This document shows, piece by piece, positions 10,738 through 38,059 of a stretch of 64,000 nt of DNA. The notes beneath the pieces were generated by a model that was given only the letters and a program-made list of their open reading frames with translations, ran no database searches and had not been told where the DNA came from. The translations under genes and the position numbers were made by a program. Origin of the DNA: a virus; the IMG/VR virus record IMGVR_UViG_3300046514_000858, positions 1-64,000 of that record, one strand, 5' to 3'. How positions within the stretch are numbered: the stretch's first letter is position 1; each line of letters begins with the position of its first letter.

Positions 10738-10750
10738 GTCCAAGTGGGTG
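10738..10750 (+). promoter_or_regulatory. Class III (late) promoter GTCCAAG-N4-YR before the ART cassette
   Basis: GTCCAAG-tggg-TG; same motif precedes most morphogenesis genes. Confidence 0.75.
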
Positions 10751-11505
10751 TGCAGAACGACCGTCCGCCGAGTGATTTCGACCATCCCTTCATCAAGGGT
10801 GGCTCAGGCTCCGGCAACTACGGACATCAGGGTCGCAGCGGTGAGCGAGGCGGCAGCGCGCCCGGCCAGCCCCGATCCGTGGCGGGCAAGGAGTTCAAGG
10901 GCTTCCCTCCGGCCACGAGCCCCCGCAAGGGCAAGGGCGAAAAGGTCGACGGCAAGAAGTTCGGCGCAAAACTTACAGAAGCAGAATCCAAGGCGCTGTC
11001 CGATTACGTGAATCAGGGCAGCAGCAACATCAACGATCATCTTCGCAACGGCAAGGCGTTGTTTCCCGAGTACAACGACCACATTGCCGCGGTCAATTCC
11101 GCCATCGCCAAGGGCGACAACTCCGAGCGTCTGCTCTATCGCGGCGCGCGGATCCAGTCCATGGAATCTCCCGCCTTCGACTACAGCACCGAGCGCCGGG
11201 CGTTCGTGCAGAAGTTCGAGGACCAGATCGGGAAGACCGTCACCATGAAGGGCTTCCAGAGCACGACGACTAGCCCCGAGCTGGCGGCCGAATTCGCTGG
11301 CGTGAACGACAATCCGATCTTCGAGATCCGCGCGAAGGGCGGCGCGCCCATCGGTGATCTGTTCGGCGCGAAGGAGAACGAGGTCGTGCTGCCTCACGGC
11401 GCGAAGTACAAAGTGCTCGACGTTGTGCACAACGTGAAGTTCAACAATCCCAAGTACGGTGATCGCCGGAATCGGTTCACGGTGATTCGACTGGAGATGC
11501 AGTGA
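10750..11505 (+). CDS. Arg-type ADP-ribosyltransferase (VIP2/Alt-like) with Gly-rich virion-targeting-like leader
   Basis: LYRG, FQSTT and ENEVVLP (R-S-ExE); N-terminus FDHPFIK|GGSGSGNYGHQGRSGERGGSAPG; GTG at 10750 preferred because it lies at the motif's YR position. Confidence 0.85.
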   Translation: MQNDRPPSDFDHPFIKGGSGSGNYGHQGRSGERGGSAPGQPRSVAGKEFKGFPPATSPRKGKGEKVDGKKFGAKLTEAESKALSDYVNQGSSNINDHLRNGKALFPEYNDHIAAVNSAIAKGDNSERLLYRGARIQSMESPAFDYSTERRAFVQKFEDQIGKTVTMKGFQSTTTSPELAAEFAGVNDNPIFEIRAKGGAPIGDLFGAKENEVVLPHGAKYKVLDVVHNVKFNNPKYGDRRNRFTVIRLEMQ

Positions 11506-11588
11506 TGCACGATCCGAAGGAACGGCCCGAGTCCGAGCTCGAAGACAAGTTCCAGCAGCCGGTCGACGGGATCGAGTTCGATAATTAG
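11505..11588 (+). CDS. 27-aa acidic peptide, candidate ART immunity protein
   Basis: TGATG-coupled to the ART; MHDPKERPESELEDKFQQPVDGIEFDN*. Confidence 0.5.
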   Translation: MHDPKERPESELEDKFQQPVDGIEFDN

Positions 11589-11869
11589 ACCGCCGGGCAA
11601 TCCAAGAAATGGATCTGGGATGCCTGCGCAGTCCACGATCCGCTGCCCTTGAAGTCCCAGTAGAAGCGCAGCGACATCATTCCTTTCGCGATTTTCTGTC
11701 CGCACTCCTTACAGGTCGCGCGCCCGGTCGCGGTTACCAGTTCGAGGCAGCCGTACTCGATATACTGTCCGCCCCGGTCGAGATTGTCGAGCCGCTCTCC
11801 TGACACGGCATGTTGCTGGCCCACTTCGCGGATCCCCTGAGCCTGCCACTCCTTCAGCATATTCGCCAT
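11585..11869 (-). CDS. PARP-type zinc-finger protein
   Basis: ATGRATCKECGQKIAKG...IHFLDC (C-x2-C...H-x3-C); GGAGG RBS. Confidence 0.65.
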   Translation of the reverse strand: MANMLKEWQAQGIREVGQQHAVSGERLDNLDRGGQYIEYGCLELVTATGRATCKECGQKIAKGMMSLRFYWDFKGSGSWTAQASQIHFLDCPAV

Positions 11870-11877
11870 ATTTCCTC

Positions 11878-12420
11878 CTACCCTGCAGCGCTCACGATCA
11901 GGTCCACTGCCGCGGCAATCACCTCTGTCGCCAGCGACCGATCCACCCCGCCGATCATATCCACCAGCGCCAGAGATTCTATCCCGTACATCTCCCGGAA
12001 TTTCGGATCCGGGTTCGCGAGCATTCCCCGCAGATTGTCGAGCCGATCCAGCATCTTCAGGATCTTCACGGCCGGGCACTGCTGCCCAAGCCGCGCCGTT
12101 TCCATCTTCTTCCGATCCTTCCGCGGCACCACGCCCTTGAGGGCCTTCGTCGAGTTCGTCAGCCCCATCACCAAGACAAGCACATCCATCCCGCAGGCGG
12201 CCTCGATTTCCGCGGGGGTCAATGCCGTGTCCTCCAGTGAATCGTGGAGGAAGGCAGCGGCCACGAGCTCCGGCGTCGCGTCCGCCCGCGCGGCCATCAT
12301 CGCAGCCACCCGCGAGGGATGGACGAAATAGGGGGTTCCTTCAAACTTCCGCATCTGGCCTTCGTGGGCCTTCTGGCCCAGCTCCCGGGCCCGGACCACG
12401 AGGGGATCGCTCATCAGCAC
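11878..12420 (-). CDS. small alarmone hydrolase (Mesh1/SpoT-type HD domain)
   Basis: AHEGQ.RK..G.PY..HP, AA.LHDSLEDT, LV..LT, K..DRLDNLR. Confidence 0.85.
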   Translation of the reverse strand: MLMSDPLVVRARELGQKAHEGQMRKFEGTPYFVHPSRVAAMMAARADATPELVAAAFLHDSLEDTALTPAEIEAACGMDVLVLVMGLTNSTKALKGVVPRKDRKKMETARLGQQCPAVKILKMLDRLDNLRGMLANPDPKFREMYGIESLALVDMIGGVDRSLATEVIAAAVDLIVSAAG

Positions 12421-12428
12421 GTATTGGA

Positions 12429-12490
12429 GACGACCAGCCGTGCGAAATATAACGAAGAATTTGTTGTAATATCCAGAGGGGTGCGAAGTC
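12429..12490. promoter_or_regulatory. divergent Class I (early, ECF-type) promoter variants
   Basis: Minus strand CGTTAT-N16-CGTC (12454-12429); plus strand TGTAAT-N16-AGTC (12465-12490). Confidence 0.6.
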
Positions 12491-12506
12491 TCAACAATGG
12501 AGGTGA

Positions 12507-13322
12507 TTGATGGCGATTCGAGTGATGGTCAGCAAGGAACGGGCCGAGGAGCTGCTCGCGGCGGGCTCCAAGAAGATCGAGATCGTCCGGGACTATCCCG
12601 GCGCGGAGGAAGGTCGGATCTACCACGATTACGACAACTGCCCGATCCGGCAGGAAGAGAAGAAGACGGGTTTCATCGTCGGGAATCCCATCGCAGTCAT
12701 GATCGGCTGCACCAGCAACTGCCGCCCCGGCGGCCCGCTCTACATGGAGACTTCCCACGAGGGACTGGTTCTTTCCCTGCGCGAGCGGAACGGCTACGAG
12801 GACTCGGACTTCTATGCCCGGGTCTGGGATCCCATCAAGAAGACGACCAACGAGGTGACGTACGCCACGACCCGCGGCTGGAGCTATCCCAACAACGCGT
12901 GGGTCGACGCCACGCCCGAGGTGCTGGCGGAGTACGAGGAGTACAAGACCAAGCGCGACGAGGCCCTCGCCCGGGCCGCCGACAAATGCCGGAAGGACGA
13001 GGCCGCCCTCCGCTTCGCCCAAGAGCTCCTGATGCCCAAGCTGGGCCGCCGGGTGGTGGTCTTCAAGGGCCGGAAGGTTCCGGTCGGCACCGAGGGCGTC
13101 GTGATCTGGGAAGGCGACGGACAGTGGGGCACGCGGATCGGCATCAAGCGGGACGACGGCGGGCTGGAGTGGACGGCGGCCAGCAACGCCAAGGTGATTG
13201 CGCCCGACGCCGACGCGCTCCTCGACGTGGTCCAGATCGCCCTGTCCACCATCGCGTCGGAGAAGGAAATCAACGACCTCAAACTGTGCCACCTGATGGC
13301 GTCTGTGGGGATCCCGTGGTAA
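12507..13322 (+). CDS. hypothetical protein with SH3/KOW-like C-terminal barrel
   Basis: GGAGG RBS; VVVFKGRKVPVGTEGVVIW. Confidence 0.65.
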   Translation: MMAIRVMVSKERAEELLAAGSKKIEIVRDYPGAEEGRIYHDYDNCPIRQEEKKTGFIVGNPIAVMIGCTSNCRPGGPLYMETSHEGLVLSLRERNGYEDSDFYARVWDPIKKTTNEVTYATTRGWSYPNNAWVDATPEVLAEYEEYKTKRDEALARAADKCRKDEAALRFAQELLMPKLGRRVVVFKGRKVPVGTEGVVIWEGDGQWGTRIGIKRDDGGLEWTAASNAKVIAPDADALLDVVQIALSTIASEKEINDLKLCHLMASVGIPW

Positions 13323-13510
13323 TGCCCAAGTGCAAACTCTGCCGGAACGCGGCGGAGATGAGCTACGAGGTCCAGCGCGACAAGCCTATCCCGCTGTGCG
13401 GCAAGTGCTTCGGAAGCTGGGCTCCGCCGGAGCTGAACAGCCTACTCGGCATCACGCCCGACGACGAGCCCACGATTCCCTGTAATGCCGCGCCCCCGGC
13501 GGCGTCTTAG
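13322..13510 (+). CDS. small Cys4 zinc-finger protein
   Basis: MPKCKLC...LCGKC; coupled start. Confidence 0.5.
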   Translation: MPKCKLCRNAAEMSYEVQRDKPIPLCGKCFGSWAPPELNSLLGITPDDEPTIPCNAAPPAAS

Positions 13511-13517
13511 AATCGTG

Positions 13518-14069
13518 ATGAGCAAGGAGAAGCGAGTGGAAAAAGTGGAAGAGATGCGCGTCAACTCGAACGGCATGGAGATCGAGTCCTGCGGGCGCTG
13601 CGGCGGCTCCGGGCATTACTCCTACTGCCAGATGTACGGCACGACCTGCTTCGGCTGCAGCGGCTCGGGCCTGCGCTTCACGAAGCGCGGCGCGGCGGCG
13701 AACGCGTTCCTGACCCAGATCCGGTCGAAGCCCATCGCGGAGCTCTCGGTCGGGATGGAAATCTGGGATGATCCCTACTTCTCGAAGGCGGGCTGGGCCA
13801 AGATCGTGGCCTTCACGCCCAGCGAGCAGAGCTCGTGGAGCGTGGTGAACGGCGAGAAGGTGATCGTGCCCGGCACCTACGTCACGATGGAGACCGAGAA
13901 GTGCACCCACTCCGCGCTGCGGATGGAAGAGAGCAAGCTCTACCGGGTGCGGCAGAGCGCGGCCGACGCCGAGATCACGCGGATCCGGGCGATGGCCTTT
14001 CAGGACACGCTGAGCAAGAAGGGCGAACCCAAGAAAGTGAAACCCGCCAAGTCGGCGGCGAAGAAATAA
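13518..14069 (+). CDS. DnaJ-type CxxCxGxG zinc-finger protein
   Basis: CGRCGGSG...CFGCSGSG; Class I promoter at 13481-13506. Confidence 0.65.
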   Translation: MSKEKRVEKVEEMRVNSNGMEIESCGRCGGSGHYSYCQMYGTTCFGCSGSGLRFTKRGAAANAFLTQIRSKPIAELSVGMEIWDDPYFSKAGWAKIVAFTPSEQSSWSVVNGEKVIVPGTYVTMETEKCTHSALRMEESKLYRVRQSAADAEITRIRAMAFQDTLSKKGEPKKVKPAKSAAKK

Positions 14070-14295
14070 GGAGAACGGACCATGGGCAAGCGCAAGATCG
14101 TTCTGAAGCAGCTCGCGTCGTCCCCACTCGCGAAGTCGCCGGGCGTGCAGTACGAGGTCGTCCAGATGTCGAACACCGTGCAGTTCTCCATCGGCGACCG
14201 CCTCGGCAAGGCCGACGTCGACCACCTCCTCAGCAAGTCCTACATGGAAGTCGTGATCAAGTAATGCGCGAGCGCGCGCGTTCTTAGGAGAAGAG

Positions 14296-14631
14296 ATGGA
14301 CGCTTTCACGAGACTCAAGGCCAAGTTGCAGACGCTCGCCACCAATCGGTGGCGGAAGCTCTCGATCAAGGATCGCGAGGGCTGCATCCGCCTGACCTAT
14401 GTCGGCGCGCCCGAGAAGTCCATCAAGCGCATGGCCCGGGCCCGTACGCCCGCCGATTACCACGAGCTGCGCGTCATGATTCGTCTCTACACCGAGCTGG
14501 TGATCAAGAGCAATCCCAAGAAGCGCGCGGCCGAGCTCAAGCGTCTCAAGGATCGCTTCCCGTTCGCGGATACCGTCAAGGAATCCAACTGGCTGCGCGA
14601 GAAAATCCGTTTCTACGAGAGCGAGGATTGA
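14296..14631 (+). CDS. basic hypothetical protein
   Basis: AGGAG RBS and Class II motif upstream. Confidence 0.55.
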   Translation: MDAFTRLKAKLQTLATNRWRKLSIKDREGCIRLTYVGAPEKSIKRMARARTPADYHELRVMIRLYTELVIKSNPKKRAAELKRLKDRFPFADTVKESNWLREKIRFYESED

Positions 14632-14632
14632 C

Positions 14633-15250
14633 GTGAAGAAGCTGACCAAGAAAGACTGGGTCGCCCGCGGTGTTCACAACAACTCCGAAGTCGCCAAGCT
14701 CGGAGGCGCGACGATCTATCTCTCGTATCGTACAGCCGAGACCGGCCGCGCGTCTCAATCCGCCGCGTGGCAGGTCATCGACGTGAATGGCAAGAGCGAC
14801 CCGAACGCACATTGGCGCGACTACGGCAACGCGACCTTCTCGCTCTGGAATCGCACCGAGAACCAGAAGCGTCTCGACGAGGCAAAGAAGTTCGCGACCG
14901 AGAAGTATGGGATCAAGGAGTGGGAGAAGGGCGGCCCGTACGGCGACTGGTTCCCCGAAGGAACGCTGGCCATGGCCGCTCACGCGACCGAGGCGTTTGA
15001 TCCGAAGAATCGCATGGACGTCGAGATCATTGTCCGCGGGCCGATAAGGTGCGGCAAGACGACGTTGTCGCACATGATCGACGGTCTGCTGAAAAGCAAA
15101 GCCTTCGAGTCTCAGGTCATCGACCGCGTCAAACCGGGCGTGGTCGAAAATGAGAAGGTGAACGACGAAGCCCTGAATCATCCCTATCATGTCTTCGGCA
15201 AGCGCGTCAAGATCACGATTCGGACGGAGCAGACGCAGCGGACTTCGTAA
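14633..15250 (+). CDS. hypothetical protein with C-terminal P-loop-like motif
   Basis: IIVRGPIRCGKTT near the C-terminus; possibly a fusion. Confidence 0.5.
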   Translation: MKKLTKKDWVARGVHNNSEVAKLGGATIYLSYRTAETGRASQSAAWQVIDVNGKSDPNAHWRDYGNATFSLWNRTENQKRLDEAKKFATEKYGIKEWEKGGPYGDWFPEGTLAMAAHATEAFDPKNRMDVEIIVRGPIRCGKTTLSHMIDGLLKSKAFESQVIDRVKPGVVENEKVNDEALNHPYHVFGKRVKITIRTEQTQRTS

Positions 15251-15413
15251 TTGAACGCTATGAAGAAGCCTAAAAGAAAACGAAGGCTGCCACTCTGTTG
15301 GCTGTGCCGCAGCAGACTCCGGGAGGGATGGAAGTGGGTCGCCAGCAAATGCGGCCTTGTGCGAATGCATCCCAAGTGTCGTAAATTTTACTGGACATAG
15401 ACGAAAGAGCTAT
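15250..15413 (+). repeat. 164-bp repeat, copy 1 (inverted copy at 41181-41344); encodes a 46-aa basic Cys/His peptide at 15260-15400
   Basis: Direct comparison gives 11 substitutions over 164 nt and no indels. Confidence 0.92.
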
Positions 15414-15428
15414 TCGAGGGTAGACACT

Positions 15429-15848
15429 ATGCCGAAGACGCTATACGCCTGCCTGATTTGCGGACGCAATTTCGAGGCAGAACCACAAGCCGTCCTGTGC
15501 GAGACGCGGCCCGAGGACAAGCCGCTTGCCAAGGTCGGGGACATCTGCACGGTCGGTGGCGACCGCTTCGGTTGGTGCGACGGCGACCGACGCTGGCTGG
15601 TCAATCCGAAGGCCGAGAAGGGGCTCCAGTTTTACTACGTCCTGACCCACATCGACGGAGATCCGGAGAACCCCCATAGGACTCGCTACCACTTCTTCAC
15701 GAAAGCGATGAGCCCCAAGAGCGGCTACAACAAGGGTACGACGTTCAACGTCCACCACTTTACGCCGCGATTGATTCTGGAGCCCCCGGCCTTCGTCGTG
15801 AATGACTCAAAGGATCTGGTTGGGAAGATCGCGGAATACATTCTGTGA
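15429..15848 (+). CDS. hypothetical protein with N-terminal CxxC
   Basis: MPKTLYACLICG...; ORF integrity. Confidence 0.55.
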   Translation: MPKTLYACLICGRNFEAEPQAVLCETRPEDKPLAKVGDICTVGGDRFGWCDGDRRWLVNPKAEKGLQFYYVLTHIDGDPENPHRTRYHFFTKAMSPKSGYNKGTTFNVHHFTPRLILEPPAFVVNDSKDLVGKIAEYIL

Positions 15849-15859
15849 GAGACGAATCG

Positions 15860-18800
15860 TGACTACTGCGAATGATATTACACAGGCGGATTTCGATCTT
15901 GCTTGGTCGATCTTAGCGTGCCGTCCATGCAAAAACACCTACGCATGTAGCGAAGGTGAGGGCGGAAATAAGTGGGCAATTCAAGGGGCCGCCGAATGCG
16001 GCTCATGTTTGGCTGAACTGATTGCCGGACTTCGCCAATCCCAAGAAGGGCAGTAGACGAATAATGACAACTCCAAATCACGTCGACTTCGGCACCCTTG
16101 GCGTGCACAACATCCAGTACTACAACGACGACACCGGTTATGGCATGACCGAGTGTGGTCTGTGTATTTTCCCCGGAGATGTGGCGAACACCGACAAGCC
16201 GATTGACGGTTGCAACTATTGCACGCCAGAGAAAACTCAGGAGAAAGCATGAAGGCGATCAAGGTCGACAAATATCTATGCTCCGTCTGCGAGACGGCCT
16301 TCGATCACACATCGAACGCCGAACGATGCGAAGCTGTACATGCGCGTCTCCTTGCGATCTATAAGATCGGAGCCAACGTCAGATGGTCCAGTAGCTGTGG
16401 CGATTACGGTTACTACGTCTACGGACAGGTGGTCGGCTTCGCGGGTCTCGGCAAGCTGGTCATTCAGCAAAAAAATTACGACATGCAAGGGAGTGACCGC
16501 AGCATCAAGGATACGGCAGTGCTCACGCTCGTTGACGACGACGGGAAGGAAATCAGATGAAGATCCCGAATGTCGCGCAGTGCGAACGTTCCTAGAGGAT
16601 AGATGAAACAGTTCGGTGAAGTTGGGGGCCTCAGCATGCAGAACCACGGGCGCAAGGCGCGCGTGGGTTCGATCCGTCTCAAGGATCGCTGGAAGGTGCA
16701 GATCCAAATTGCGCCAGTGCCGGACAACGGCAACGCCCCCACCGCCATGTGCATGGAGCCCGCGACCGCGAGAGAGTTTGCGGCACATATCCTCAGCGTC
16801 GCGCATCTCGTGGATTCTATGCCCAACGAGGTGGCCGCGGTCAAGCACGATGCCGCGCAGACCGCCAAGATCAACTCCGGCATTCGCTACGAACAGCAGC
16901 GCCGTGCACGCGACATCATGCAGGCGGAGAACGAGGTCGCCCGTCTCAAAGGCCAGAAGCTGCCACATCCCGAGGAAGATTTCTGATGCACACGAAAGAG
17001 CCGTGGAGTCGTGGCCAGCTCCTGAATACCGCGATCACGCGGACGTGGAGCAAGGAAGCTCGTGAGGCCGCCGAAGAGGAAGAGCGCCAGTACGTTTTCG
17101 CAAATTTCTCGCCCTCTGATGAGGGCCGGGGGCGAAAACTAATCGCGCGCGTCTTCCCCGGTCACGACTTCGAGGGCAACCACCGGCTCATCACCGCGGC
17201 ACCCGATCTACTGTTCGCGGTGAACGCCGCGATCTCGGTGATCAATCCGTGCCGGGAGATCGATTTCACAGTACTGGAGATCCTGCGCTCCGCGCGCAAG
17301 ATCGCGACGAGAGGGAGAAAGAGTGATGCGTGACAATATCTGGGAAGTGCAAATCCTCCAAAACGGCGTCCATGCGACGTACAGATTCGAACCGAAGCCC
17401 GACGTCGAATTCGTGAACTCCCATTACACCAAGGTCAGCGGCATCACCGAGATGGGCGACCAACTGGAGCTCCGCATCGGCACTCAGCAGGTATGGAGCA
17501 TGATGGGGCCGATCAAGGAACGCGATCTGTGCGACAGGGGTAGCTGATGCCCGTGAAACTCCCATTCCCGGAGAAGGTGATCCAGCGTCTCGCCGCTCGC
17601 ATGTATCGAGCCGCGGTGGACTTCGGTTACCCAGACGTGACGATGCAGGAGATCGAGGACGCCACACGCAAGGCTCTGCGTGGCGAAGTCCCGTCTGGTC
17701 CGCCTTCGAGACTTGTGATCGAGATGCTGATCCGCGGATGGATGGAGGATGCGAAGGTCATCGATCCCATCCGGAAGAATCCCATCAAGAAGCCCCGGAA
17801 GAAACGGCACAAGGTCCATTTCTGCACCGGCTACTCCTGCACGACGTGCAACAAGCCCCATCCCACCAAGTGCGGGTCCTGCGGGAAACAGAGCCACTTC
17901 GGGAGATGCCATGAGTGATCCGCGCGTGCAGGCCGCCTACGAGTTCTCCCGGATCCTGATCGACGAGTACACGCAGGATCAGTACCTGCATCGGGAGGAC
18001 GCCAAGGCCATCGTCAAGGTCGCCAAGCGTATGCAGGACCTCCTGCTCACCACCAAGCCGCTGGACGAGCCGATCACCGAGGGCAAGAGACTCTCGTGCA
18101 TCTGCGGGTGGGGCCGGATCAGCCCCATCACGCCCAACAAGCTGACCACCGAGCAACTGATCCGAGACGTCGAGAAGCTGCCCGGCCACAATGACGAGTG
18201 CCCGGGATGCTGCGAGGGCATGAGGCAGCAGGTCATCCATTACCTCAAAGGTGGATTGCTGTGACCGAGACAGTCTACACCGATCCGGATTTTTTCAGTA
18301 GTGACTGGATCCGGGCGCACGGACCCCCTGACGCAGAGCCGGTCCATCTTGCCTTGAAACCAAAGGCGGGCGGATCGATTCGACAACTCGACGTCAAAGC
18401 TCGTTTCGACAAATGGTCTGGCCAGCTCACATTCTTCAACTGGGCTGTTCGACAGCTCAAGGGAGAGCATGGCGACACCCTCTGGATCGACTACCGCGAC
18501 CGCGGAGGGTTCAGCAAGGCGTATCGGGTCGTCGACGCCGCGGTCCACTACGGATCCATCCAGCGTGTACCTGAGAGCACATTCCGATATGAAGGGGTTG
18601 ACGCATGAGCCGTGAAACAGTCGAGGTCAAGTGGTTGCGTTCCGGACAGCCCCGGCGCTATGCCGACACCGTTCGGGAGGCCGAGATCATCGTGAAGGGG
18701 TACGTCGACGACGGCACCATTGAGAAGCAGAGCTCGTGGGATCCGGGAGAATCCGTCATCCGGGATCTCGCGCGCGTGCTCGTTGCGGACTTCGACGATC

Positions 18801-29593: not shown

Positions 29594-29809
29594 AATCCCC
29601 TAAGTGATCAGCCTCTGGTGCAGGGATCGAATCCCAGCGGGATCACGGCCGAGGATGAACCCTGATGAGGGGAGAACTCAGATCGCGAGTGAACTCGCCG
29701 ACAGAGAATAAGCGCCCCCGTATCTGCACGAATTCTAGACTCCCGTGCAGGGGCAAGGGTGACGAACCACCGGCCGATGCCGGGTAACAGGCTGATCACT
29801 TAGGGGATT
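29594..29809. ncRNA. 216-nt multi-hairpin element closed by a 21-bp perfect inverted repeat
   Basis: AATCCCCTAAGTGATCAGCCT (29594-29614) / AGGCTGATCACTTAGGGGATT (29789-29809); at least 5 internal hairpins; no credible ORF. Confidence 0.6.
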
Positions 29810-29876
29810 TTTGAATCGCTTTTCCTGTCATACCCTCCTCGTTCGGTCGTCTCTAATACGGCTGATGAAAGGAGAA

Positions 29877-30152
29877 ATGATGGGTGCCTCGCGACTGGTT
29901 CCGGTGATCGTGAAGTTCGTCTGCGCGGGAAACGTGGCTATGACGCCTTCCGCGTGGCAGTCGAAGTACTGCGGCAAGCCCAACGACGCGAATCTGGCCA
30001 AGCACATCGACCACCTCTCGAAGTCCTTCTTGCCCGGCGGTGTCAACGAGCACTGCGGCCCCACCAAGATCGTGTCCGCCGAGGTCATCCGTCAGTCGAC
30101 CGGTGAGGTGCTGGCGAAGTGGATGATGCCGATGTTCGAGGTGATCGCGTGA
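29877..30152 (+). CDS. hypothetical protein
   Basis: Class I promoter plus AAGGAG RBS. Confidence 0.6.
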   Translation: MMGASRLVPVIVKFVCAGNVAMTPSAWQSKYCGKPNDANLAKHIDHLSKSFLPGGVNEHCGPTKIVSAEVIRQSTGEVLAKWMMPMFEVIA

Positions 30153-30457
30153 GCGCCCCGACCTGCGGATGTCCGGTCGACGCACCCGAGGCCGACTCGA
30201 CCCAGTACCCGTGTCCCTGCGGGGATCATTGTCAGATTTGTAAGTGAAGTCAGAGGACACTATGAACAGCCTCGACAAGCAGATCGCCGCAGCCGACCGA
30301 GTATGGCGCGCACACGGGCAGCGCCTACTCGCTGTAGGCGCGATCTGGACACCCGTCCTGCAGCATCTCTTCGACATGAAGGAATACCTTGAATCCCAGC
30401 GTCGACATGCCCGGAAGTCCAAGCGTTCCTGTAAGAGTTGACTTCTTTCCGCAACCG

Positions 30458-30496
30458 CCCCCGGGATCGTACCACACACGATTCCGGGGGTTTTTT
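30458..30496 (+). terminator. intrinsic terminator
   Basis: CCCCCGGGATCGT / ACGATTCCGGGGG plus T6. Confidence 0.8.
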
Positions 30497-30550
30497 ATTG
30501 TTACGCTCCGCGCGCCGGGTCGTCTTACTCTCGTGATGAATGGAGGAAAA

Positions 30551-30763
30551 ATGATCGTGAGCAAGGAAGCCAAGGCCGCCGCGCGCGCCGAGAAGGCGCT
30601 GGACAAGCAGATCGAGGCCGAGTACTACAAGCAGGGCTCGGGCGTGATGGTCGACATCATGGACATCGGGAAAATCTTCCGCGACGTCAAGCTGGAGCTC
30701 GCCGCGGGGACGCCGTTGCCGACTGCCATTTCGGCAGCTATCGCCAAGTACCGCAAGAACTAG
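30551..30763 (+). CDS. hypothetical protein
   Basis: Class I promoter plus GGAGG RBS. Confidence 0.6.
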   Translation: MIVSKEAKAAARAEKALDKQIEAEYYKQGSGVMVDIMDIGKIFRDVKLELAAGTPLPTAISAAIAKYRKN

Positions 30764-31075
30764 ATTCCGTTTCCCGCGTCACTTTCCTGTTACGGCCGAT
30801 ACGGTGGGTCGTCTTACTTCCGTGATGAGAAAGATGATCGCGGCCCTGCGGGAGTGGTTCTCTGCGGGGCAGGTTGACCCGGCGGAGTTGAAGAAGGTGC
30901 TCGACGGGTTCTGGATCTAGCGGAAGGGAGACTCGGATGGAGATGAAGATGTCGGAAGGGGAGCTGCTGGTGATGGCGCTGGGCGGAGATCCGGCGGAAG
31001 CGTGGGAGCTGTTCGAGCCCGCCCCGGTGGCCCCCGCCCCGGCTCTGGTCTTGGTGGAAGCGTAAGGAGGATCGG

Positions 31076-31990
31076 ATGGCGAAGAAAGAAGAGAAGCTGA
31101 CCCCGGGCCTCGACAAGGTGAAGGCATCGCTCGACGCGACCTTCGCCCGTATCGAGCCCAAGCTGAAGAGCATCCTGCAGGCGGCCTACCGCAAGGACGC
31201 GGATCGAGCCTTCGCGGCTCTGATGGAGTACGCGCCGAAGGCCAAGACGGGAGACCGACTGGGTGAGTACGGTTCCCCGTCGGAAAATTACTACCACTGG
31301 ACCCAGTACGACAAGGACGCCGCCATGAAGGTGTGGTACGCGTCCTTCAAACGCACCGCCGACGACTCGGTGCCCGCCGCGGCTTACAAGACGATGCCTC
31401 CAGATCACATGCAGTCTTTCGCCGACATCGTGGAATGGGCCAAGTACCTCTCGGTCAGCTACCACAACGCTGACAAGCGCGCGAAGGATTCCGTCGAGAA
31501 CGCGCGGGACTCCTTCGTTCGGAAGAACGTCGCGAAGTTCGGCAACGTCCTCGTCGCCTGCGACATCACCACGGTCGACGGTCGCGTCGAGTGGAAGGGT
31601 GGATACTTCGAGGGCTTTCTGAAGATCGGCCTGCCGACCGGCCTGATCACGGCCGAGGTCTCCCTGAAGTACGTGCTGCGCCGGATCCCCCGGACGACGC
31701 CCTACTACCAGTATCCCCTGATCTTCCTCTGCGCCAAGATCGGCGAGAAGGAAATGAACCGTCCCTCGGAGGCCGAGCTCCGCGAGGCGCTCGGCAACGG
31801 CAAAGCCCCGACTCCCGCGGAGGTCTTCGCCGCCAAGGGCTACTGCCCCGGGTCCGGGAAGGAATCGCACCCGACGTTGAAGGCGTGGGGCCGCGACCGC
31901 AAGATTTGCAGCGAGTGCAAGGGCGTGTTCTACGCGAGCCCCACGTCCGGACTCGTGCGTGCCCACCGCGCCTACGTGAAGAAGAGCTAG
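31076..31990 (+). CDS. hypothetical protein with C-terminal zinc finger
   Basis: CPGSG...CSEC...H; AAGGAGG RBS. Confidence 0.7.
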   Translation: MAKKEEKLTPGLDKVKASLDATFARIEPKLKSILQAAYRKDADRAFAALMEYAPKAKTGDRLGEYGSPSENYYHWTQYDKDAAMKVWYASFKRTADDSVPAAAYKTMPPDHMQSFADIVEWAKYLSVSYHNADKRAKDSVENARDSFVRKNVAKFGNVLVACDITTVDGRVEWKGGYFEGFLKIGLPTGLITAEVSLKYVLRRIPRTTPYYQYPLIFLCAKIGEKEMNRPSEAELREALGNGKAPTPAEVFAAKGYCPGSGKESHPTLKAWGRDRKICSECKGVFYASPTSGLVRAHRAYVKKS

Positions 31991-31999
31991 GAGGATTCA

Positions 32000-32272
32000 A
32001 TGAGTCGCTACGACGAGAATTCGCCGCGCGCGCTGATCGCCAAGATCCGCGAGAGCTACAAGCAAAACTGCGTGATCGACATGCGCGGCTTCTGGATGCC
32101 CGCCGACGAGAGCGGCAAAGAGCCGGTGCAGCTCACGGACGAGCAGAAGCTCGCCGTCGAGACGCGTCTCAAGGACAACTTCCGGATCTGGTGGCAGACG
32201 TGGGTCGGCCCGCGGCTCGATATGATCGAAGACCGCGTCGTCAAGAATCGCAAGCCGATTCCTCCGGCCTAG
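32000..32272 (+). CDS. hypothetical protein
   Basis: GGAGG RBS. Confidence 0.55.
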   Translation: MSRYDENSPRALIAKIRESYKQNCVIDMRGFWMPADESGKEPVQLTDEQKLAVETRLKDNFRIWWQTWVGPRLDMIEDRVVKNRKPIPPA

Positions 32273-32545
32273 TCGCGTTCTTAGATGGTATGAACGTCAC
32301 AAGGTGGTACAAGACCTTCGCAGCAATCGCCGGGTGGAAGAAGCGCCGCCTTCATGATCGTGCCGAGTACGTCGGCACCGACTTCCGCTGCTTCGTGGTG
32401 AATCACGACGCGCTGGTGAGCTGGTCGCGCAAGTTCAAGTTCGATTTCTACATCAGCGACGACAAGGTGTCCATCCACGAGCCCGGACTCATCATCCACG
32501 CGGGCTGGATCGTCGCCGTGATCCGCTGGCCGTTCGGCCGTCGCA

Positions 32546-33079
32546 TCAGGTAGGCTTGGCCGCGTAGCGTTCCAGCGCCCCGAGGCTGCGCTTGGCGCGC
32601 TTCAGTCGCGTGGTGAGAGCCTTGATCTTCCGCTCCAGTCCCTTGATCTGCCGCTGGCGCTTCTCGATCTTCTTCGCCCGGATGTCAGCGATCAGCGGAG
32701 GAGGGATCGGCGGGAGCTCGGCTTTCTTCAGAGCGCCATTCATCCAGCCGTTCTTGATTGCCCATGCCCGCAGCTTCCGCTCGATCCGCGCGTGCACTTT
32801 CGAGTGGGGCCGCCCTCCGATCTTCTCGGTGTAGTACCAGTGCGAGAAGAGGTGGATCAGATCACCCCATCCCTTCTCGACGTTGACACGGAACTCGCTT
32901 CCGCGCAGCCACGTATAGCGGTTGCCGGAAGTCTCCGTGATCCGGTAGGGGAATTTGTGGCCGCTGAGATGTCGGTACATCTTCCGGACTGCTCGGGTGG
33001 CCTCGTCGAGGGTCAGTGGAGTGACCGGGTCGACCGGCTTGATCAGGTTCACTTTCTCGTACGCCTGCGCGATGTTCAC
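32546..33079 (-). CDS. hypothetical protein (HxxxH...H, SprT-like) with basic coiled-coil tail
   Basis: LIHLFSH...PHS; AGGAGG RBS; last gene of a minus-strand Class I operon. Confidence 0.55.
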   Translation of the reverse strand: MNIAQAYEKVNLIKPVDPVTPLTLDEATRAVRKMYRHLSGHKFPYRITETSGNRYTWLRGSEFRVNVEKGWGDLIHLFSHWYYTEKIGGRPHSKVHARIERKLRAWAIKNGWMNGALKKAELPPIPPPLIADIRAKKIEKRQRQIKGLERKIKALTTRLKRAKRSLGALERYAAKPT

Positions 33080-33088
33080 GCCGTCCTC

Positions 33089-33409
33089 CTAGAATTTCAA
33101 CTGGCCGTTGATCTTGTCCCGTAGATTCCTCGCAGCCACGAGCCGCCCGCGGGAATCGACGTCGTTGTTATCGCTCGCGATATCGATGATGCTTCCGCAA
33201 ACGGTCTCAGCCAACCACTTCGCATCGCGGTCATTCAACTCCAGCCACGACCGTGTCTCCTCCGCGCGCGCGAGGCGCGCGTACAGGTGCGTCGCATACC
33301 CCAGCGCGCAGGTCTTGTACTGCTCGACGCCCTCGTCTTCGATCCATGCTTCGAGGTCGTTCCACACCGCGCGTTCCTGAGCCCGCGTGACTTTCACCCG
33401 CACCGTCAT
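33089..33409 (-). CDS. hypothetical protein
   Basis: AAGGAG RBS before MTVRVKV. Confidence 0.55.
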   Translation of the reverse strand: MTVRVKVTRAQERAVWNDLEAWIEDEGVEQYKTCALGYATHLYARLARAEETRSWLELNDRDAKWLAETVCGSIIDIASDNNDVDSRGRLVAARNLRDKINGQLKF

Positions 33410-33419
33410 ATCTCTCCTT

Positions 33420-33623
33420 CTAGCTCTGGGCCAGAACCGCCAGTCCGAACACGATGGCCTTGTCGAACGCGTCGTCGTCCAGTTTCTCCAGTTTCTCCCA
33501 CGACTCCGCACTCACGAGGTACCCGTACTTCGGGATCACGCCCGAGGTTTTCGCGAAAATCTTGAAGCCCTTCTTGGTTTGCTGGGCTTTGAAATTCGCC
33601 GTCTCTTTCACCGCAACGCCCAT
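33420..33623 (-). CDS. hypothetical protein
   Basis: Class I promoter at 33687-33662 and GGAAAGGAG RBS. Confidence 0.6.
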   Translation of the reverse strand: MGVAVKETANFKAQQTKKGFKIFAKTSGVIPKYGYLVSAESWEKLEKLDDDAFDKAIVFGLAVLAQS

Positions 33624-33927
33624 GCCGATCTCCTTTCCACACGTACCGATCACGTAATATAGACGACCCACCCCGCCGATCATGACACGAAATCGCGATT
33701 ATCATTTTCTTTGTTATACCCGCCCGGGTGCGGCGTCTTACTGTCGTGATGAGCGAAGGAGGTCGAGTGAGTGTGAAGCGCGGGCCCGGGAAGAAGAGCT
33801 ACTGGCTGACCTGCTGGGCGATGAAGGCAAGCGCGGCTGGCATGCCCATGGAAGAGATCAAAGTGAAGATGGCGGAGATGAAGAAGAAGTCCATCGCCGA
33901 GATCATGGCGTGGACGAAGGAGAACTC

Positions 33928-34248
33928 ATGAAAGCGAAACTGAAGCGCCTCCCGGTGTACCGCTCGGCCCTCGGCGATTCCTCGAACGACGGGATCTCCG
34001 GGAAGGAATCCCACGTCTATCTGATCGAGCTCGACGGCTTGATCCCGCCCCAGATCCCGCTAGAGGCCGTCTTCCGCGCCGAACAGCGCGGTCCGAAGTA
34101 CTTCGCCCTGATTCCCTTCGTGTCGCCCGTCAAGATGTGCGGCCCGATGTTCGGCGGGAACCTCGCCATGGACGAGGATTCCGGCCGGATCTACAAGATC
34201 CACGACCGCTTCGAGACGCCGGAGCTGAATGCACTGTTGAGTTCTTGA
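33928..34248 (+). CDS. conserved-looking phage hypothetical protein
   Basis: D.SN.GIS...GPMFGGN...IHDRFE. Confidence 0.6.
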   Translation: MKAKLKRLPVYRSALGDSSNDGISGKESHVYLIELDGLIPPQIPLEAVFRAEQRGPKYFALIPFVSPVKMCGPMFGGNLAMDEDSGRIYKIHDRFETPELNALLSS

Positions 34249-34331
34249 CGCTTTTTCCTGTCACGGGCGTCGGGGTCGGGCGTCTCAGATACGTGGCGAT
34301 GATGATCGGAAACTGCGGAAAGGAGATCGGT

Positions 34332-34712
34332 ATGAGCGAGCTGAATCTGGTGGCCCTGTTCGGGAAGGCCCACGCGGCGGGGAACGCGGCGGCTGCGGCC
34401 TTGATCCCGGTTCCCATGATCGTCGCGGAGCACGCGAGTCCGCTGGATGACGCCTCCCCGGTGGTCCAGAGCTGGCAGGTGGAAGGCGGGGTGTGCGGCT
34501 TCGCGTGGGTGACGATCTCCCCCGGGACCTCGAAGGCAGCGCGGTTCGCGAAGGAGCACTACGGCGCGCGGAAGGGGTACTACGGCGGAATGGAGCTCCG
34601 GGTGTCCCAGTTCGGGCAGAGCATGCAGAAGAAGGAAGCCTACGCCGGAGCGTTCGCCGCGGTCCTGAGCGCCGCGGGGATCACGGCCTACTCCGGTTCT
34701 CGGATGGACTAA
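34332..34712 (+). CDS. conserved-looking phage hypothetical protein
   Basis: GVCGFAWV...QSM..KEAYA.AFA.VL...GI.A..SR.D. Confidence 0.7.
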   Translation: MSELNLVALFGKAHAAGNAAAAALIPVPMIVAEHASPLDDASPVVQSWQVEGGVCGFAWVTISPGTSKAARFAKEHYGARKGYYGGMELRVSQFGQSMQKKEAYAGAFAAVLSAAGITAYSGSRMD

Positions 34713-34748
34713 GCGCATTTCTTCCGAGATCACGCGTTCTTGTCTGGT

Positions 34749-35210
34749 GTGAAATGTACGCAATGTCCCCGTATCGCGCAATACGATAGGCGACGTTGTC
34801 CTAAGTGTTTGGCAACTTCGCGCGCTTGTGCTAGGGCATATTATGCCGCCAACCCCGAACGTGCTCGTGCTGCGGTTCGAGCCTATCAGGCAACTCACAA
34901 GGCGGCGCTGAGACTCTACAACCGAAAGTGGCGCACCAAGAAATGTCGGGAGTACAATTCTTGGGCGTGCATGATTCAGCGTTGCACAAATTCCAAACAC
35001 CATGCCTTTCACAACTACGGTGGCCGCGGCATTAAGGTCTGCGCGCGCTGGCGTAATTCCTTTGAGCACTTTCTCGCCGACATGGGTCCGCGGCCAAGTC
35101 CGAAGCATTCCATCGACCGCTTCCCCAACAACGACGGCGACTACGAGCCCGGCAACTGTCGCTGGGCTACGGCGAGAGAGCAGGCGCGTAATCAACGAGG
35201 GCGTGTATGA
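34749..35210 (+). CDS. HNH homing endonuclease
   Basis: W..MIQRC...YGGRGIKVC.RW...F..DMG.RP...SIDR..N.G.YEPGNCRWAT..EQ.RN; visibly lower GC. Confidence 0.85.
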   Translation: MKCTQCPRIAQYDRRRCPKCLATSRACARAYYAANPERARAAVRAYQATHKAALRLYNRKWRTKKCREYNSWACMIQRCTNSKHHAFHNYGGRGIKVCARWRNSFEHFLADMGPRPSPKHSIDRFPNNDGDYEPGNCRWATAREQARNQRGRV

Positions 35211-35473
35211 CCATAAAATTTATCGACGTCGACCAGAAAGCCATCGCGGATCGGGACCCGAACCCCATCAACATCCGCATCCGGACGCCGATGCCATCTC
35301 CCCTCGGAGAGTTCGCGTGCCTGCGCGCGCGCGAGGTATTTATCTCCGGCCCCAGTGAGATCCGCTACTGCCCGGTTCATCCCCAGCCGTTCGGTGCGCG
35401 CGTCTGGGTTCAGACCGATTCACCGATCATGTACAAGTCCAGCGAATTATTGGACTGGCAGCGAATCCCGTGA
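35207..35473 (+). CDS. hypothetical protein
   Basis: Coupled start; GPS...Y.P......GARVW. Confidence 0.55.
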   Translation: MTIKFIDVDQKAIADRDPNPINIRIRTPMPSPLGEFACLRAREVFISGPSEIRYCPVHPQPFGARVWVQTDSPIMYKSSELLDWQRIP

Positions 35474-35961
35474 ACTCCACGCTGGCCGCCCCGACCCTCG
35501 ATCTCAAGGTTGAGCCGATCCTGCGACCCGACGGCAAGGCCCGGGCCTACGCCATCAACGGGCGCATGCACACGCTGATCGACCGGGACAACCAGCGCTA
35601 TCTCTACCGCCTCGGGCGTTTCATCGTCAAGGTCGGCGTGCAGAGCAAGATGGAGGCCGCTCGCGCAGCCGGGTCGTGCGCCGGGTCGCCCTACTTCTGG
35701 CCGCTCGTCGGCTCGGGCAAGGTGAACGGCCTCAAGTACGACGACGTCTGGTGGACCGCGCAGGAGATCCTGCCGTTGAAGCGCGCGATCTACACCTACG
35801 ACCGGGACGAGTGGTGCGCGGCCTACCATGTGATCCTCGGGGTGGCCGCCGATCACCACATCTACGATATCGAGCTGGACGAATTCCCGGACGGCCTGAT
35901 GAGGCCGCACAACTGGACCATTTTCCGGGACACCCCGGTCATCTACGACTACGGCATGTAA
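35470..35961 (+). CDS. divergent protein-kinase-like fold protein
   Basis: FIVKV...E...W..QE...RPHNW...VIYDYG. Confidence 0.4.
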   Translation: MNSTLAAPTLDLKVEPILRPDGKARAYAINGRMHTLIDRDNQRYLYRLGRFIVKVGVQSKMEAARAAGSCAGSPYFWPLVGSGKVNGLKYDDVWWTAQEILPLKRAIYTYDRDEWCAAYHVILGVAADHHIYDIELDEFPDGLMRPHNWTIFRDTPVIYDYGM

Positions 35962-36249
35962 GGAGGACAACATGGGACAGCAGAAGAAAGACGCGCCCGT
36001 TCAGAAAACCCCCAAGAAGGGCAAGAGTGTGCACACGGTGCACTCCTCGGTGAAGTACGCCATCCGGCACGGCTACACGCCGGGATCGAGCCCGCGTCGC
36101 ACGGGCAAGCGCTGGAATTCCGGCCGTCGCGAGCGCATGCTCAACGCCCCGACGAAATCGGCGGGCCTGCCGAAGGTGCACTGACCGCCGCTTTTTCTGT
36201 TACGCCGCGCCTCCATGGTCGTCTCTATTACGTGATGAATGGAGGAAGC

Positions 36250-36720
36250 ATGGACGCCAAGGCAGCCGGTCCGATCAAGCAGGTCTGGGAAGGCGCGGTC
36301 GGGACGGCCAAGCGCTGTCGCGCGGTTCTAAAAGCCAAGTTCCCCGGCACCAAGTTCTCGGTCCGCTCCAAGACGTACTCCGGCGGATCCTCGGTTTACA
36401 TCGACTGGACCGATGGTCCCCTGACGGAAGCTGTCGACAAGCTCGTGAAACCCTTCGAGGGCGCGTCCTTCGACGGCATGGTCGACCTGATGAGCTACGT
36501 CGACGTGGTCGTGGTGGATGAGTCCGGCGAGCTGGTTCAGATCCACGGCGCGAACTACATCCTGACCCAGCGTTCCCGCTCGGCTGAGCGCGAGAAGCTG
36601 ATCGAGGCGGAGCTCCGGCAGTACTGGTGCGAGAAGGAAGCAGAGGAAGCGATCAAGTTCCACGACTGCCGCCTGTACGCGGAGTCGGAAGCTCGGATGA
36701 TGAAGGAGGGCAAGCTGTGA
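36250..36720 (+). CDS. LPD29-like (large polyvalent protein domain) protein
   Basis: LKAKFPGTKFSVRSKTYSGGSS..I.WTDGP...FDGM.D. Confidence 0.75.
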   Translation: MDAKAAGPIKQVWEGAVGTAKRCRAVLKAKFPGTKFSVRSKTYSGGSSVYIDWTDGPLTEAVDKLVKPFEGASFDGMVDLMSYVDVVVVDESGELVQIHGANYILTQRSRSAEREKLIEAELRQYWCEKEAEEAIKFHDCRLYAESEARMMKEGKL

Positions 36721-37052
36721 TGGATCAAGCGAAGATGGTCGGCGTGCTGGTGCTGGCTCGGGTCGCCGCGGAGGACTCCGTGCGTCCGTTCTCGGACGGC
36801 GGGACCTGCAATATGGATTCCTGCGTGATCGTCGCCCCGCCGGAGGTGAACATGGCGCTGGCGTGCGCCGCGGCCGGGCTGGGCTCCTACTACCGCGGAG
36901 GCAGCAAGAAGCGCGACATGTGGGCCGGGAAGTGGTTTCTGCACGCGCCCAAGGGCGGGCAGGGCGACGCCCGCACGAAGCAGGCCGAGGCGATGGACAA
37001 GGTCATGAAGGAGTACGGCATCGAGTCGACGGTGTACTACCAGATGGATTGA
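36720..37052 (+). CDS. hypothetical protein
   Basis: DGGTCNMD...QG..RT..AEAM...YY.MD. Confidence 0.6.
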   Translation: MDQAKMVGVLVLARVAAEDSVRPFSDGGTCNMDSCVIVAPPEVNMALACAAAGLGSYYRGGSKKRDMWAGKWFLHAPKGGQGDARTKQAEAMDKVMKEYGIESTVYYQMD

Positions 37053-37068
37053 TGGTCCAAGAGGGTGC

Positions 37069-37818
37069 ATGTTGAAAGCGTCTCGTCCCAGTTCTCCCTT
37101 CGACGACCCCTTCCGTAAGGGCAACGCGAACTCCGGCAACCATGGCCATTCCGGTCGCCCGGGCCAAGTCGGAGGCAGCGCCCCCGGCGGCGGGCAGAAC
37201 GCGGCGGTCAATCCCGTGATCCGGGCCCAGACCGAGCACGTCATGGCGCAGGCCCGGGCGATGGACAACAAGATCACGCCTCTGATCGCCATGACCGTCG
37301 ACACGAGCGGTGGCCAGATGATCGGTCTCGAACATCGCATCAAGACCTCGGCCGACCGCATCTCCCAGAAGATCGCCGAGAAGATGGCCACCGAGAATCT
37401 CACGCCTGAGCAGGCGCGTAACAACATCTACGACTCCCTCCGCTTCACGGCATCGTTCAGTCCGGACCAGTACACCGCCGGAGTGGAGAAGCTGTTGTCC
37501 AACCTCAAGGCGCAGGGTATCGAAGCAGCCCCGGGCAAGGACAAGAATTATTGGCCCCCGCCGCCCGGTGTCTACCACGGCCTCAACTACGTGATGACCG
37601 ACAAGAGCGGCTTCAAGTTCGAGCTCCAGTTCCACACGCCCGAGAGCTTTGCCATCAAGCAGCAGAACCACACCGTCTACGAAGCATTCCGGAACGCGGG
37701 AGGCAGCAAGGAGCAGCGCCTCCAGCTCTGGAACGAGATGAACCAGCGCTGGGCTGGCGTGACCGTGCCGCCGGGCGTCAAGCGGCTCGGCCGGTCGGTG
37801 AATCAGGAACAGGCATGA
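37069..37818 (+). CDS. RelA/SpoT-family toxic nucleotide pyrophosphokinase (Apk2/Tas1-like) with Gly-rich leader
   Basis: GLEHRIKT...KI, DSLRFT, KNYW, YHGLN, FELQFHTPES, H.VYE..R; N-terminus FDDPFRK|GNANSGNHGHSGRPGQVGGSAPG; GTCCAAG at 37055. Confidence 0.85.
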   Translation: MLKASRPSSPFDDPFRKGNANSGNHGHSGRPGQVGGSAPGGGQNAAVNPVIRAQTEHVMAQARAMDNKITPLIAMTVDTSGGQMIGLEHRIKTSADRISQKIAEKMATENLTPEQARNNIYDSLRFTASFSPDQYTAGVEKLLSNLKAQGIEAAPGKDKNYWPPPPGVYHGLNYVMTDKSGFKFELQFHTPESFAIKQQNHTVYEAFRNAGGSKEQRLQLWNEMNQRWAGVTVPPGVKRLGRSVNQEQA

Positions 37819-37828
37819 GGAGGATGGT

Positions 37829-38059
37829 ATGACGAAGATCCGCTACTTCGAGTTGCAGCCCGCCACGGAACCCAAGCCGACCGGGATCCTGCGCCTCACG
37901 ATCACGGACACCCAGCTCACGCTGGAGCACTACGATCCCAAGTCGGCCACATGGATCGATGACCCCAAGGCCCTCGACTTCCTCAACGGCGACGACGCCG
38001 ACGCCGAGGAGATCCCGTCGGGCGAGGCCCTCAAGTTGATCTTGCAGCTCACCGTCTGA
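37829..38059 (+). CDS. cognate immunity protein (IapK-like)
   Basis: 76 aa, acidic; RYF...LRL...E.Y...W...G....EEI...EA..LI; own GAGGAGG RBS directly after the toxin. Confidence 0.65.
   Translation: MTKIRYFELQPATEPKPTGILRLTITDTQLTLEHYDPKSATWIDDPKALDFLNGDDADAEEIPSGEALKLILQLTV

Follow-up and report, generated by a model that had tools for sequence, protein, structure and literature searches.

Why do two unrelated toxins of a single phage begin with the same short peptide? The question arises in the first 64 kb (positions 1 to 64,000; the window) of a 93,745-bp phage genome with 62% G+C and direct terminal repeats, IMG/VR virus record IMGVR_UViG_3300046514_000858, which comes from an uncultured phage of soil and rhizosphere metagenomes. 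Here a stand-alone ADP-ribosyltransferase (ART) and a stand-alone RelA/SpoT-homologue (RSH) alarmone synthetase each follow the same N-terminal leader and the same upstream DNA motif. An earlier note on this DNA had claimed that the leader addresses interchangeable effectors to the prohead, where an XkdF-like protease would cut them free for injection into the next host. We found that the core of the leader is a near-invariant 20-residue tag that stands in front of effector modules in a large number of phage proteins, and on balance we favour, with the odds only slightly on its side, the reading that the two toxins are single-module, head-carried effectors uncoupled from MuF, with the tag as their address, their processing label or both. 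The observation behind the note was thus confirmed, and its interpretation was supported in part: the portability of the leader and its links to head proteins speak for it, and the evidence on XkdF specificity speaks against it. The two toxins and their leaders are as follows.

10750..11505, plus strand: stand-alone ExE-type ADP-ribosyltransferase (Pfam ADPrib_exo_Tox), with a GTG start at 10744 or 10750
10750..10881, plus strand: ART leader, residues 1-44, consisting of the N-piece RPPSDFDHPFIK and then the tag core GGSGSGNYGHQGRSGERGGS (10798-10857)
37069..37818, plus strand: stand-alone Apk2/Tas1-like RSH alarmone synthetase toxin, from sequence and fold matches
37069..37200, plus strand: synthetase leader, residues 1-44, consisting of the N-piece RPSSPFDDPFRK and then the tag core GNANSGNHGHSGRPGQVGGS (37120-37179)

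The first toxin is an ART, as the note had said, and of the arginine type. Its open reading frame (ORF) matches Pfam ADPrib_exo_Tox at 4e-17 (62.6 bits, against a cut-off of 23.4), and the catalytic residues of the R / STT / ExE signature are in place as YRG132, STT173 and ENE211. The nearest solved structures are those of Vip2 and the iota-like toxins. A tblastn search of the INPHARED phages with the full-length ART found no phage match; the domain does match the C terminus of a PHROG family annotated as 'head maturation protease'.

A Pfam scan of the second toxin gave no RelA_SpoT match, and its assignment as an RSH synthetase, which agrees with the note, is made from three other kinds of comparison. 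By sequence it matches an exported small alarmone synthetase (SAS; PDB 8vx3) at 1.3e-13. Its AlphaFold2 model, which has a predicted local distance difference test (pLDDT) score of about 90 over residues 49-240, retrieved the same structure in a Foldseek search (4e-13, TMt 0.83), together with Tas1 (6ox6_A, 5.5e-7) and SAS1, SAS2 and RelP. Finally, residues 52-240 are 31-33% identical by tblastn to the toxin domains of MuF-Apk2 proteins from pneumococcal, Mannheimia and Pasteurella sources, and the catalytic syn motifs are kept, with FELQFHT, DSLRFT and YHGLN corresponding to FEMQYHT, DALRYT and YKGVN in the toxin of phage IPP60. Like the ART, the synthetase domain matches the C termini of PHROG head-protein families, in this case those annotated as 'head morphogenesis/minor head protein'. 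The matched pneumococcal, Mannheimia and Pasteurella toxins are characterized Apk2 (p)ppApp synthetases (PMC12226406, PMC10083569), and the family of the exported SAS, the closest solved relative, is reported in PMC12691689 to make (p)ppApp or (p)ppGpp. The predicted product of the window enzyme is probably (p)ppApp.

The leaders of the two toxins align with 23 of 39 residues identical (BLASTP E 6e-12), including the common PF[IR]K-G stretch that had been noticed before, and beyond the first 40 residues the two proteins share nothing. These two copies, 26 kb apart, are the only ones of the leader in the whole 93,745-bp genome, all reading frames included. Each leader consists of a lineage-specific N-piece, RPxSxFDxPFxK, followed by the near-universal tag, GGxGSGNxGHxGRPGxxGGS. 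In the AlphaFold2 model the synthetase leader is unstructured (pLDDT 31-38, compared with about 90 for the toxin domain), and such a disordered leader is presumably recognized by a partner.

A close relative is P0125, a protein of 572 residues that has the same leader at its N terminus (MRKIERPHSPFDHPLTKGG…), followed by an ART-like module, an internal tag and a second ART. The second module is orthologous to the window ART (63% identity). The RPxSxFDxPhxK piece is present on the three N-terminal copies from these two phages and absent from the internal copy of P0125, which suggests that it is a lineage-specific addition to a universal tag. None of the 34 further tag loci found in a second metagenome scan had the RPxSxFDxPFxK N-piece, and a search of viral, metagenome and genome contigs for the contig that encodes P0125 gave no match. 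Word-index searches with either leader returned the query alone, and a tblastn search of the INPHARED phages with the leader alone found no match, which is likely to be an effect of the low-complexity filter.

A profile built from the two leaders was searched against 1.84 billion representative proteins and matched 1,606 clusters at E <= 1e-3, 368 of them at E <= 1e-10. Together with the E value of 6e-12 between the two leaders, these matches led us to reject chance or low sequence complexity as the origin of their likeness. The best 150 of the 1,606 clusters are represented by proteins 545-3,154 residues long, each of which matches the profile in 2-10 stretches. Counted by regular expression, these 150 best-scoring proteins contain 593 copies of the tag at a median spacing of 236 residues, with up to 9-10 copies per protein. 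The consensus is h-x-[K/L/R]-GGPGSGNFGHAGRPGEVGGS-AP, in which G, H and S are invariant and R is present in 93% of copies; across the aromatic, His and Arg positions, conservation is 93-100%.

The domains that accompany the tag are those of effectors and of head proteins. Among 100 tagged proteins, Pfam modules include ADPrib_exo_Tox (16), ART-PolyVal (9), MuF (7), Zeta toxin (4) and XkdF protease (3), along with GNAT, NUDIX, Fic, HipA-like, RelA_SpoT, PARP, Tpt1 and several metallopeptidases, although a metallopeptidase domain of any kind was found in only about 10% of them. No conjugative-element domains appeared in this tally. ART or RSH modules homologous to those of the window occur inside the tagged polyproteins P0125, P0072, P0008, P0053, P0023, P0103 and P0052. 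A further motif, NPxHDxxGRF, was found neither in this genome nor in any of the 150 proteins.

Within these proteins the tag is a prefix of modules and not a linker between them. In 64 of 145 proteins the first copy is found no more than 30 residues from the N terminus, often at residues 9-26, and more than 150 residues follow the last copy in 130 of the 145, whereas in just one protein does the last copy lie within 30 residues of the C terminus. In IMG/VR contigs we found many small free-standing genes, often arrayed, in which the tag begins 5-20 residues after the initiating methionine, as well as fused proteins in which it immediately follows the MuF signature (…PPLHPNCRCAL…) or the XkdF domain. 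The MuF protein and the protease of the window end exactly where the fused forms begin the tag. Given the prefix position, the tag-first free-standing genes and the tags that follow MuF and XkdF, we conclude that the unit of evolution is the tag plus a domain, and the two window toxins are two such units encoded as separate genes. The arrays contain genes with one to five tag copies each (L033, 278-5968; L006, 3293-7453; L017, 1916-8111; L027, 3257-4405). In two tag-array phages with complete genomes and direct terminal repeats (74 kb and 79.6 kb), neither MuF nor a prohead protease was detected.

We then asked at which level the tag is conserved, using eleven loci with four or more copies. 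Between copies, four-fold-degenerate sites were identical at a frequency of 0.27-0.62, compared with 0.33-0.51 expected from codon use, and ten of the eleven loci fell within about 0.05 of the synonymous expectation, the exception being L031 (0.62 versus 0.51). For copies within one genome, identity is also given as 0.33-0.43, with 0.33-0.40 expected. Because synonymous sites are randomized and the residues are near-invariant, the tag peptide must be kept by selection on the protein. The same result rules against the tag being a DNA-level recombination site or a product of recent gene conversion.

The claim that the leader is portable therefore held up, its homologues being linked to many unrelated toxin and effector domains. 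It is a portable prefix on diverse effectors, and the description as a module prefix of polyvalent proteins suits it better than that of a novel signal of stand-alone proteins or of this phage. A literature search with strings of the tag motif found no paper, and text searches of Iyer 2017 (PMC5512222) and Jamet 2017 (PMC5576092) found no glycine-rich linker or cleavage motif; the tag is probably undescribed.

The proposal that the leader is cut by the phage's own protease brings in the head module and the proteins in which cleavage sites had been suggested.

44.9-55 kb: head module with terminase, portal-MuF fusion, XkdF-type protease, coiled-coil scaffold-like protein and HK97-fold capsid
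46710..49154, plus strand: portal-MuF fusion of 814 residues with no C-terminal toxin extension (portal, residues 106-422; MuF by Pfam, residues 661-758)
50460..51212, plus strand: XkdF-like (Peptidase_S78_2) prohead protease, its C-terminal end being the point at which fused homologues begin the tag
51733..53091, plus strand: HK97-fold major capsid protein with an N-terminal delta region and a proposed EVAK/AM site (the slash marks the cut) at residues 123-128

As had been noted, the MuF of this phage carries no toxin. Between portal and MuF lie about 150 residues that are Ala/Pro-rich and acidic. The capsid protein is only distantly related (24% identity) to the capsids of T5-like phages, and contigs from four soil and rhizosphere sequencing runs contain the same phage and a relative about 94% identical to it. 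A gene for a 200-residue tyrosine-recombinase/integrase-like protein (42451-43053; phrog_216, 1.7e-30) is present in this phage with direct terminal repeats.

According to the cleavage proposal, the leader would target the capsid and be removed by the XkdF-like protease, which would cut after lysine, at PFxK/G in the leaders, at PFRK/A between portal and MuF and at EVAK/A in the capsid delta region. Cleavage after lysine has a precedent in the HK97 protease, and the capsid has a hydrophobic-x-K/small pattern at the expected delta boundary. The PFRK at 48432-48443 was correctly placed where MuF begins: it is at residue 575 of the fusion, just before the MuF homology at about residue 590. The 27,331 residues of the predicted proteome contain PF[IR]K just three times, once in each leader and once where portal meets MuF, compared with about 0.3 expected, and 2 of 500 shuffles reached three; however, the count was noticed post hoc and, because the two leaders are homologous, it amounts to one independent extra site. 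Across tagged proteins, the residue before the GG of the tag is K in 45% of copies, L in 19% and R in 15%, with A, N, E and D also found. This residue differs between lineages, with Ala or Leu after Arg/Lys-x in P0004, Asn in P0013 and Glu in P0028, and within a protein it is 91% uniform, compared with 53% on shuffling, as would be expected if it co-evolved with the pocket of a lineage-specific protease. In four polyproteins the tag directly follows an XkdF domain. Lys or Arg precedes the GG in 60% of copies, but in about 40% the residue is non-basic (L, A, N, E, D or other). What stays invariant in the leader is a stretch of 20 residues beyond the proposed cut, an unusual pattern if the site served for cleavage alone. 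Only 1 of 10 long tagged contigs encodes PF14550, and 1 of 5 encodes MuF. The specific link to XkdF is not supported, and we regard cleavage of the leader after Lys by this protease as improbable. Modification of an N-terminal glycine by a QueC-type enzyme was also considered and is unsupported, there being no QueC in the genome.

Both toxin genes also share DNA upstream of their starts, extending into GGTCCAAGnGGGTG. The GTCCAAG motif before both toxins, seen in the earlier note, is enriched: the window has 17 copies compared with 8.2 +/- 2.7 expected, and none of 100 shuffles reached 17. The full motif is about 16 nucleotides long, GTCCAAGRGRRTRGAC, and 16 of its 18 intergenic copies have T at position 12. 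Structural genes follow most of these 18 copies, with start codons 6-35 nucleotides downstream; the genes behind them encode the portal-downstream, protease, scaffold, connector and tail-tube proteins, as well as both toxins. A second motif, TGTHAY-N16-CGTCT, resembles promoters of extracytoplasmic function (ECF) sigma factors and is present in 10 copies compared with 0.07 expected, all in the non-structural half.

10738..10753, plus strand: 16-nucleotide GTCCAAG...T motif that abuts or overlaps the ART start
37055..37070, plus strand: 16-nucleotide GTCCAAG...T motif, with the synthetase ATG 14 nucleotides from the motif start
39744, 49173, 50425, 51246, 53130, 54557 and 56043 of the window and 66479-84835 of the genome: copies of GTCCAAGRGRRTRGAC before structural genes
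36198..36224, plus strand: ECF-type promoter motif TGTTAC-N16-CGTCT at the head of the LPD29 operon upstream of the synthetase
13481, 27455, 29826, 30499, 30788, 33661 (minus strand), 33712, 34259, 36198 and 42171: copies of TGTHAY-N16-CGTCT

The 16-nucleotide motif is a candidate promoter or RNA-level element that would tie the two toxins to the structural genes. Some of its sites would yield near-leaderless mRNAs, and elsewhere its purine part could act as a Shine-Dalgarno sequence. The claim that the synthetase is expressed late only is not established, because the ECF-type promoter at 36198 could transcribe it by read-through.

The tag is probably a label for head-carried proteins, because it heads the modules of polyvalent toxins and of toxins fused to head proteins. 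Beyond the observed domain identities, distribution and prefix position of the tag, purifying selection, predicted disorder and shared upstream motif, we infer a course of packaging, trimming, ejection and timed expression. The toxins would be made together with the head proteins, from the GTCCAAG-type motif common to structural genes; they would enter the procapsid through the tag and might be trimmed there; they would be ejected with the DNA into the next host; and the immunity proteins would protect the producing cell until assembly is finished.

Several points weigh against this course of events. The toxin genes are located in a host-takeover region, at a distance of 7-36 kb from the head module, and no terminator separates the synthetase from the ECF-type promoter at 36198, by which it is reachable. 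The ADP-ribosyltransferases ModA and ModB of phage T4 are not known to be packaged, so a phage ART does not have to travel in the head. In three tagged genomes of at least 90% completeness, neither MuF nor any of the four prohead-protease families S78_2, S78, ClpP and S49 was detected, so the tag, if it is a head label, is independent of MuF and of those proteases. Finally, a peptide that hardly varies among very different phages would be expected to have a universal partner (DNA or a host factor, for example) more than a fast-evolving head protein.

In a different explanation, the tag is unrelated to the capsid and is a conserved disordered spacer that, in the producing cell or after delivery, binds DNA or a nucleotide, or else a conserved host protease or chaperone by which modules are separated or activated, with the window toxins acting as host-takeover enzymes in the infected cell. 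Near-invariance among phages that have no common MuF or protease type, the 93-100% conservation at the aromatic, His and Arg positions, the location of the toxin genes in the host-takeover region and the ECF-type promoter upstream of one of them would all fit such a role, and the aromatic-His-Gly-Arg-Pro core recalls the GRP of the AT-hook, a likeness of only three residues. However, the tag is fused time and again to proteins from inside the head (MuF, portal and prohead protease), the module tally has no conjugative-element domains, and the candidate immunity genes and structural-gene motif fit a protein that is made here and used elsewhere. We consider a role outside the capsid unlikely. 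The head-carried reading could also be taken further: GGxGSGNxGHxGRPGxxGGS might be a general, portable cargo label of tailed phages, by which every protein bearing it, whether single or part of a polyprotein, would be loaded, released at the tag and injected in a way that depends neither on MuF nor on the type of protease, with the PFxK piece as the lineage's own protease site, as between portal and MuF. We put this extension forward tentatively.

Immunity to the toxins, which the head-carried reading calls for in the producing cell, was sought in the genes around them.

37829..38059, plus strand: acidic ORF of 76 residues (isoelectric point 4.4), 11 nucleotides after the synthetase in the position of IapK, with weak collinear similarity to IapK
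11505..11588, plus strand: acidic ORF of 27 codons that overlaps the ART stop (TGATG), a candidate micro-immunity gene for which homologues were not found
11878..12420, minus strand: small alarmone hydrolase (SAH; HD_4, 5e-14)
11585..11869, minus strand: 94-residue protein that matches zf-PARP weakly (2e-4), encoded downstream of the HD gene
36232..36720, plus strand: stand-alone gene for large-polyvalent-protein-associated domain 29 (LPD29), by domain match

The claim that a small acidic ORF adjoins each toxin was right for the synthetase, which is followed by the 76-residue ORF, and stood less well for the ART, which is followed by just 27 codons. Similarity of the 76-residue ORF to IapK is weak both by BLASTP (E 0.015) and by hhalign, which aligned it collinearly over 69 columns with five IapK sequences (probability 17%, E 1.5e-3). 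A word-index search for its homologues returned the query alone, and its fold model was of low confidence (pLDDT 63) and had no structural match. The synthetase has a candidate IapK-like partner, whereas a partner for the ART is doubtful. Enzymatic immunity of the ARH or Macro type was rejected, as a search of the genome found neither gene, and because that leaves only the overlapping 27-codon ORF, which is no more than a candidate, immunity to the ART is unproven.

The true neighbours of the ART are the convergent minus-strand genes for the HD hydrolase and the zf-PARP-like protein. The pair (11585-12475) is preceded by a sigma-70-like site, TGGATA-18-TATATT, and a PARP-type finger adjoining an ART gene is curious in itself. 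The hydrolase is closer to SAH enzymes of the Lmo0812/MESH1 type (3e-16) than to Aph1 (7smg, 9e-5), is 36% identical to the IPP60 hydrolase and is unlinked to the synthetase, being 25 kb away on the opposite strand. It may degrade the product of the synthetase as a form of immunity or serve another purpose. Upstream of the ART cassette (9353-10218) are small DUF3310 and KTSC-domain genes. Directly 5' of the synthetase (36232-37052), the LPD29 gene and a phrog_23592 gene resemble a polyvalent protein split into separate genes.

The two toxin genes might simply be ordinary prophage toxin-immunity or moron cassettes that serve in lysogen competition or superinfection exclusion, as fission remnants of a polyvalent protein with the leader as a vestigial linker. 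The stand-alone LPD29 and other polyvalent-type pieces beside the synthetase would agree with fission, the small gene at 42451-43053 that resembles tyrosine recombinases could point to a temperate phage, and MuF toxins are described in PMC5576092 as typical of temperate phages. A vestige is nevertheless not what we observe: both leaders retain nearly all of the invariant tag residues, the tag copies show purifying selection and their synonymous sites are saturated, the extra N-piece is conserved in three proteins of two phages, and tag-first free-standing genes recur in many phages. We think that this explanation is very unlikely to be correct.

The tag bears on the route by which MuF toxins and polyvalent proteins enter the virion and on their possible division into units; the physiological role is not understood, according to PMC10083569 and PMC12226406. 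The window offers a clean natural case, in which two unrelated toxins have one tag each, the same upstream motif and separate candidate immunity genes, and in which MuF and the protease are tag-less. New here are this minimal two-copy case, the recurrence of the N-piece at the portal/MuF junction, the shared upstream motif and the synonymous-site test. A short prefix that is near-invariant, under purifying selection and found in more than 1,600 protein clusters is also a testable handle in cultured tag-bearing phages. If the head-carried reading is true, the tag would let chosen proteins be loaded into phage heads, and injected effectors would become recognizable in metagenomes by sequence alone.

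Among known systems, the synthetase is most readily compared with MuF-Apk2-IapK-Aph1 (PMC5576092, PMC10083569, PMC12226406), with which it shares a homologous toxin domain (about 33% identity) of the RSH fold, a small ORF directly downstream of the toxin and an HD alarmone hydrolase in the genome. ART toxins are likewise known as MuF fusions (Bxa). Unlike MuF polymorphic toxins, however, the window toxins are free-standing, MuF forms part of the portal protein and is not extended at its C terminus, and the toxin genes, at 10.7 and 37.1 kb, are outside the head module. The window also differs from MuF-Apk2 in its hydrolase, which is encoded away from the toxin on the other strand and resembles MESH1/SAH more than Aph1, and pneumococcal MuF-Apk2 has no glycine-rich tag, whereas the window toxins are headed by one.

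Phage-type polyvalent proteins, as described in PMC5512222, have the same repertoire of ART-PolyVal, RelA/SpoT, MPTase, LPD and MuF domains, and the tag punctuates such proteins. They are predicted there to be delivered with DNA, and an embedded zincin protease (MPTase) is proposed for their processing (PMC5512222). Polyvalent proteins carry two or more effector domains, whereas the window proteins have one domain each after the leader and P0125 has two.

In phage T4, the capsid-targeting sequence (CTS) is a short N-terminal peptide of about 10 residues on unrelated cargo, namely the internal proteins and Alt, among them an ADP-ribosyltransferase; these proteins are made late, enter the prohead, are trimmed by its protease gp21, which cuts the CTS after Glu, and are injected. 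The window tag has no sequence similarity to the CTS and differs from it in having at least 20 invariant residues, internal copies of up to 9-10 per protein and a distribution over very diverse phages. What the two have in common is a short N-terminal peptide shared by unrelated cargo that includes an ART, and in the window phage loading and cutting would be further parallels.

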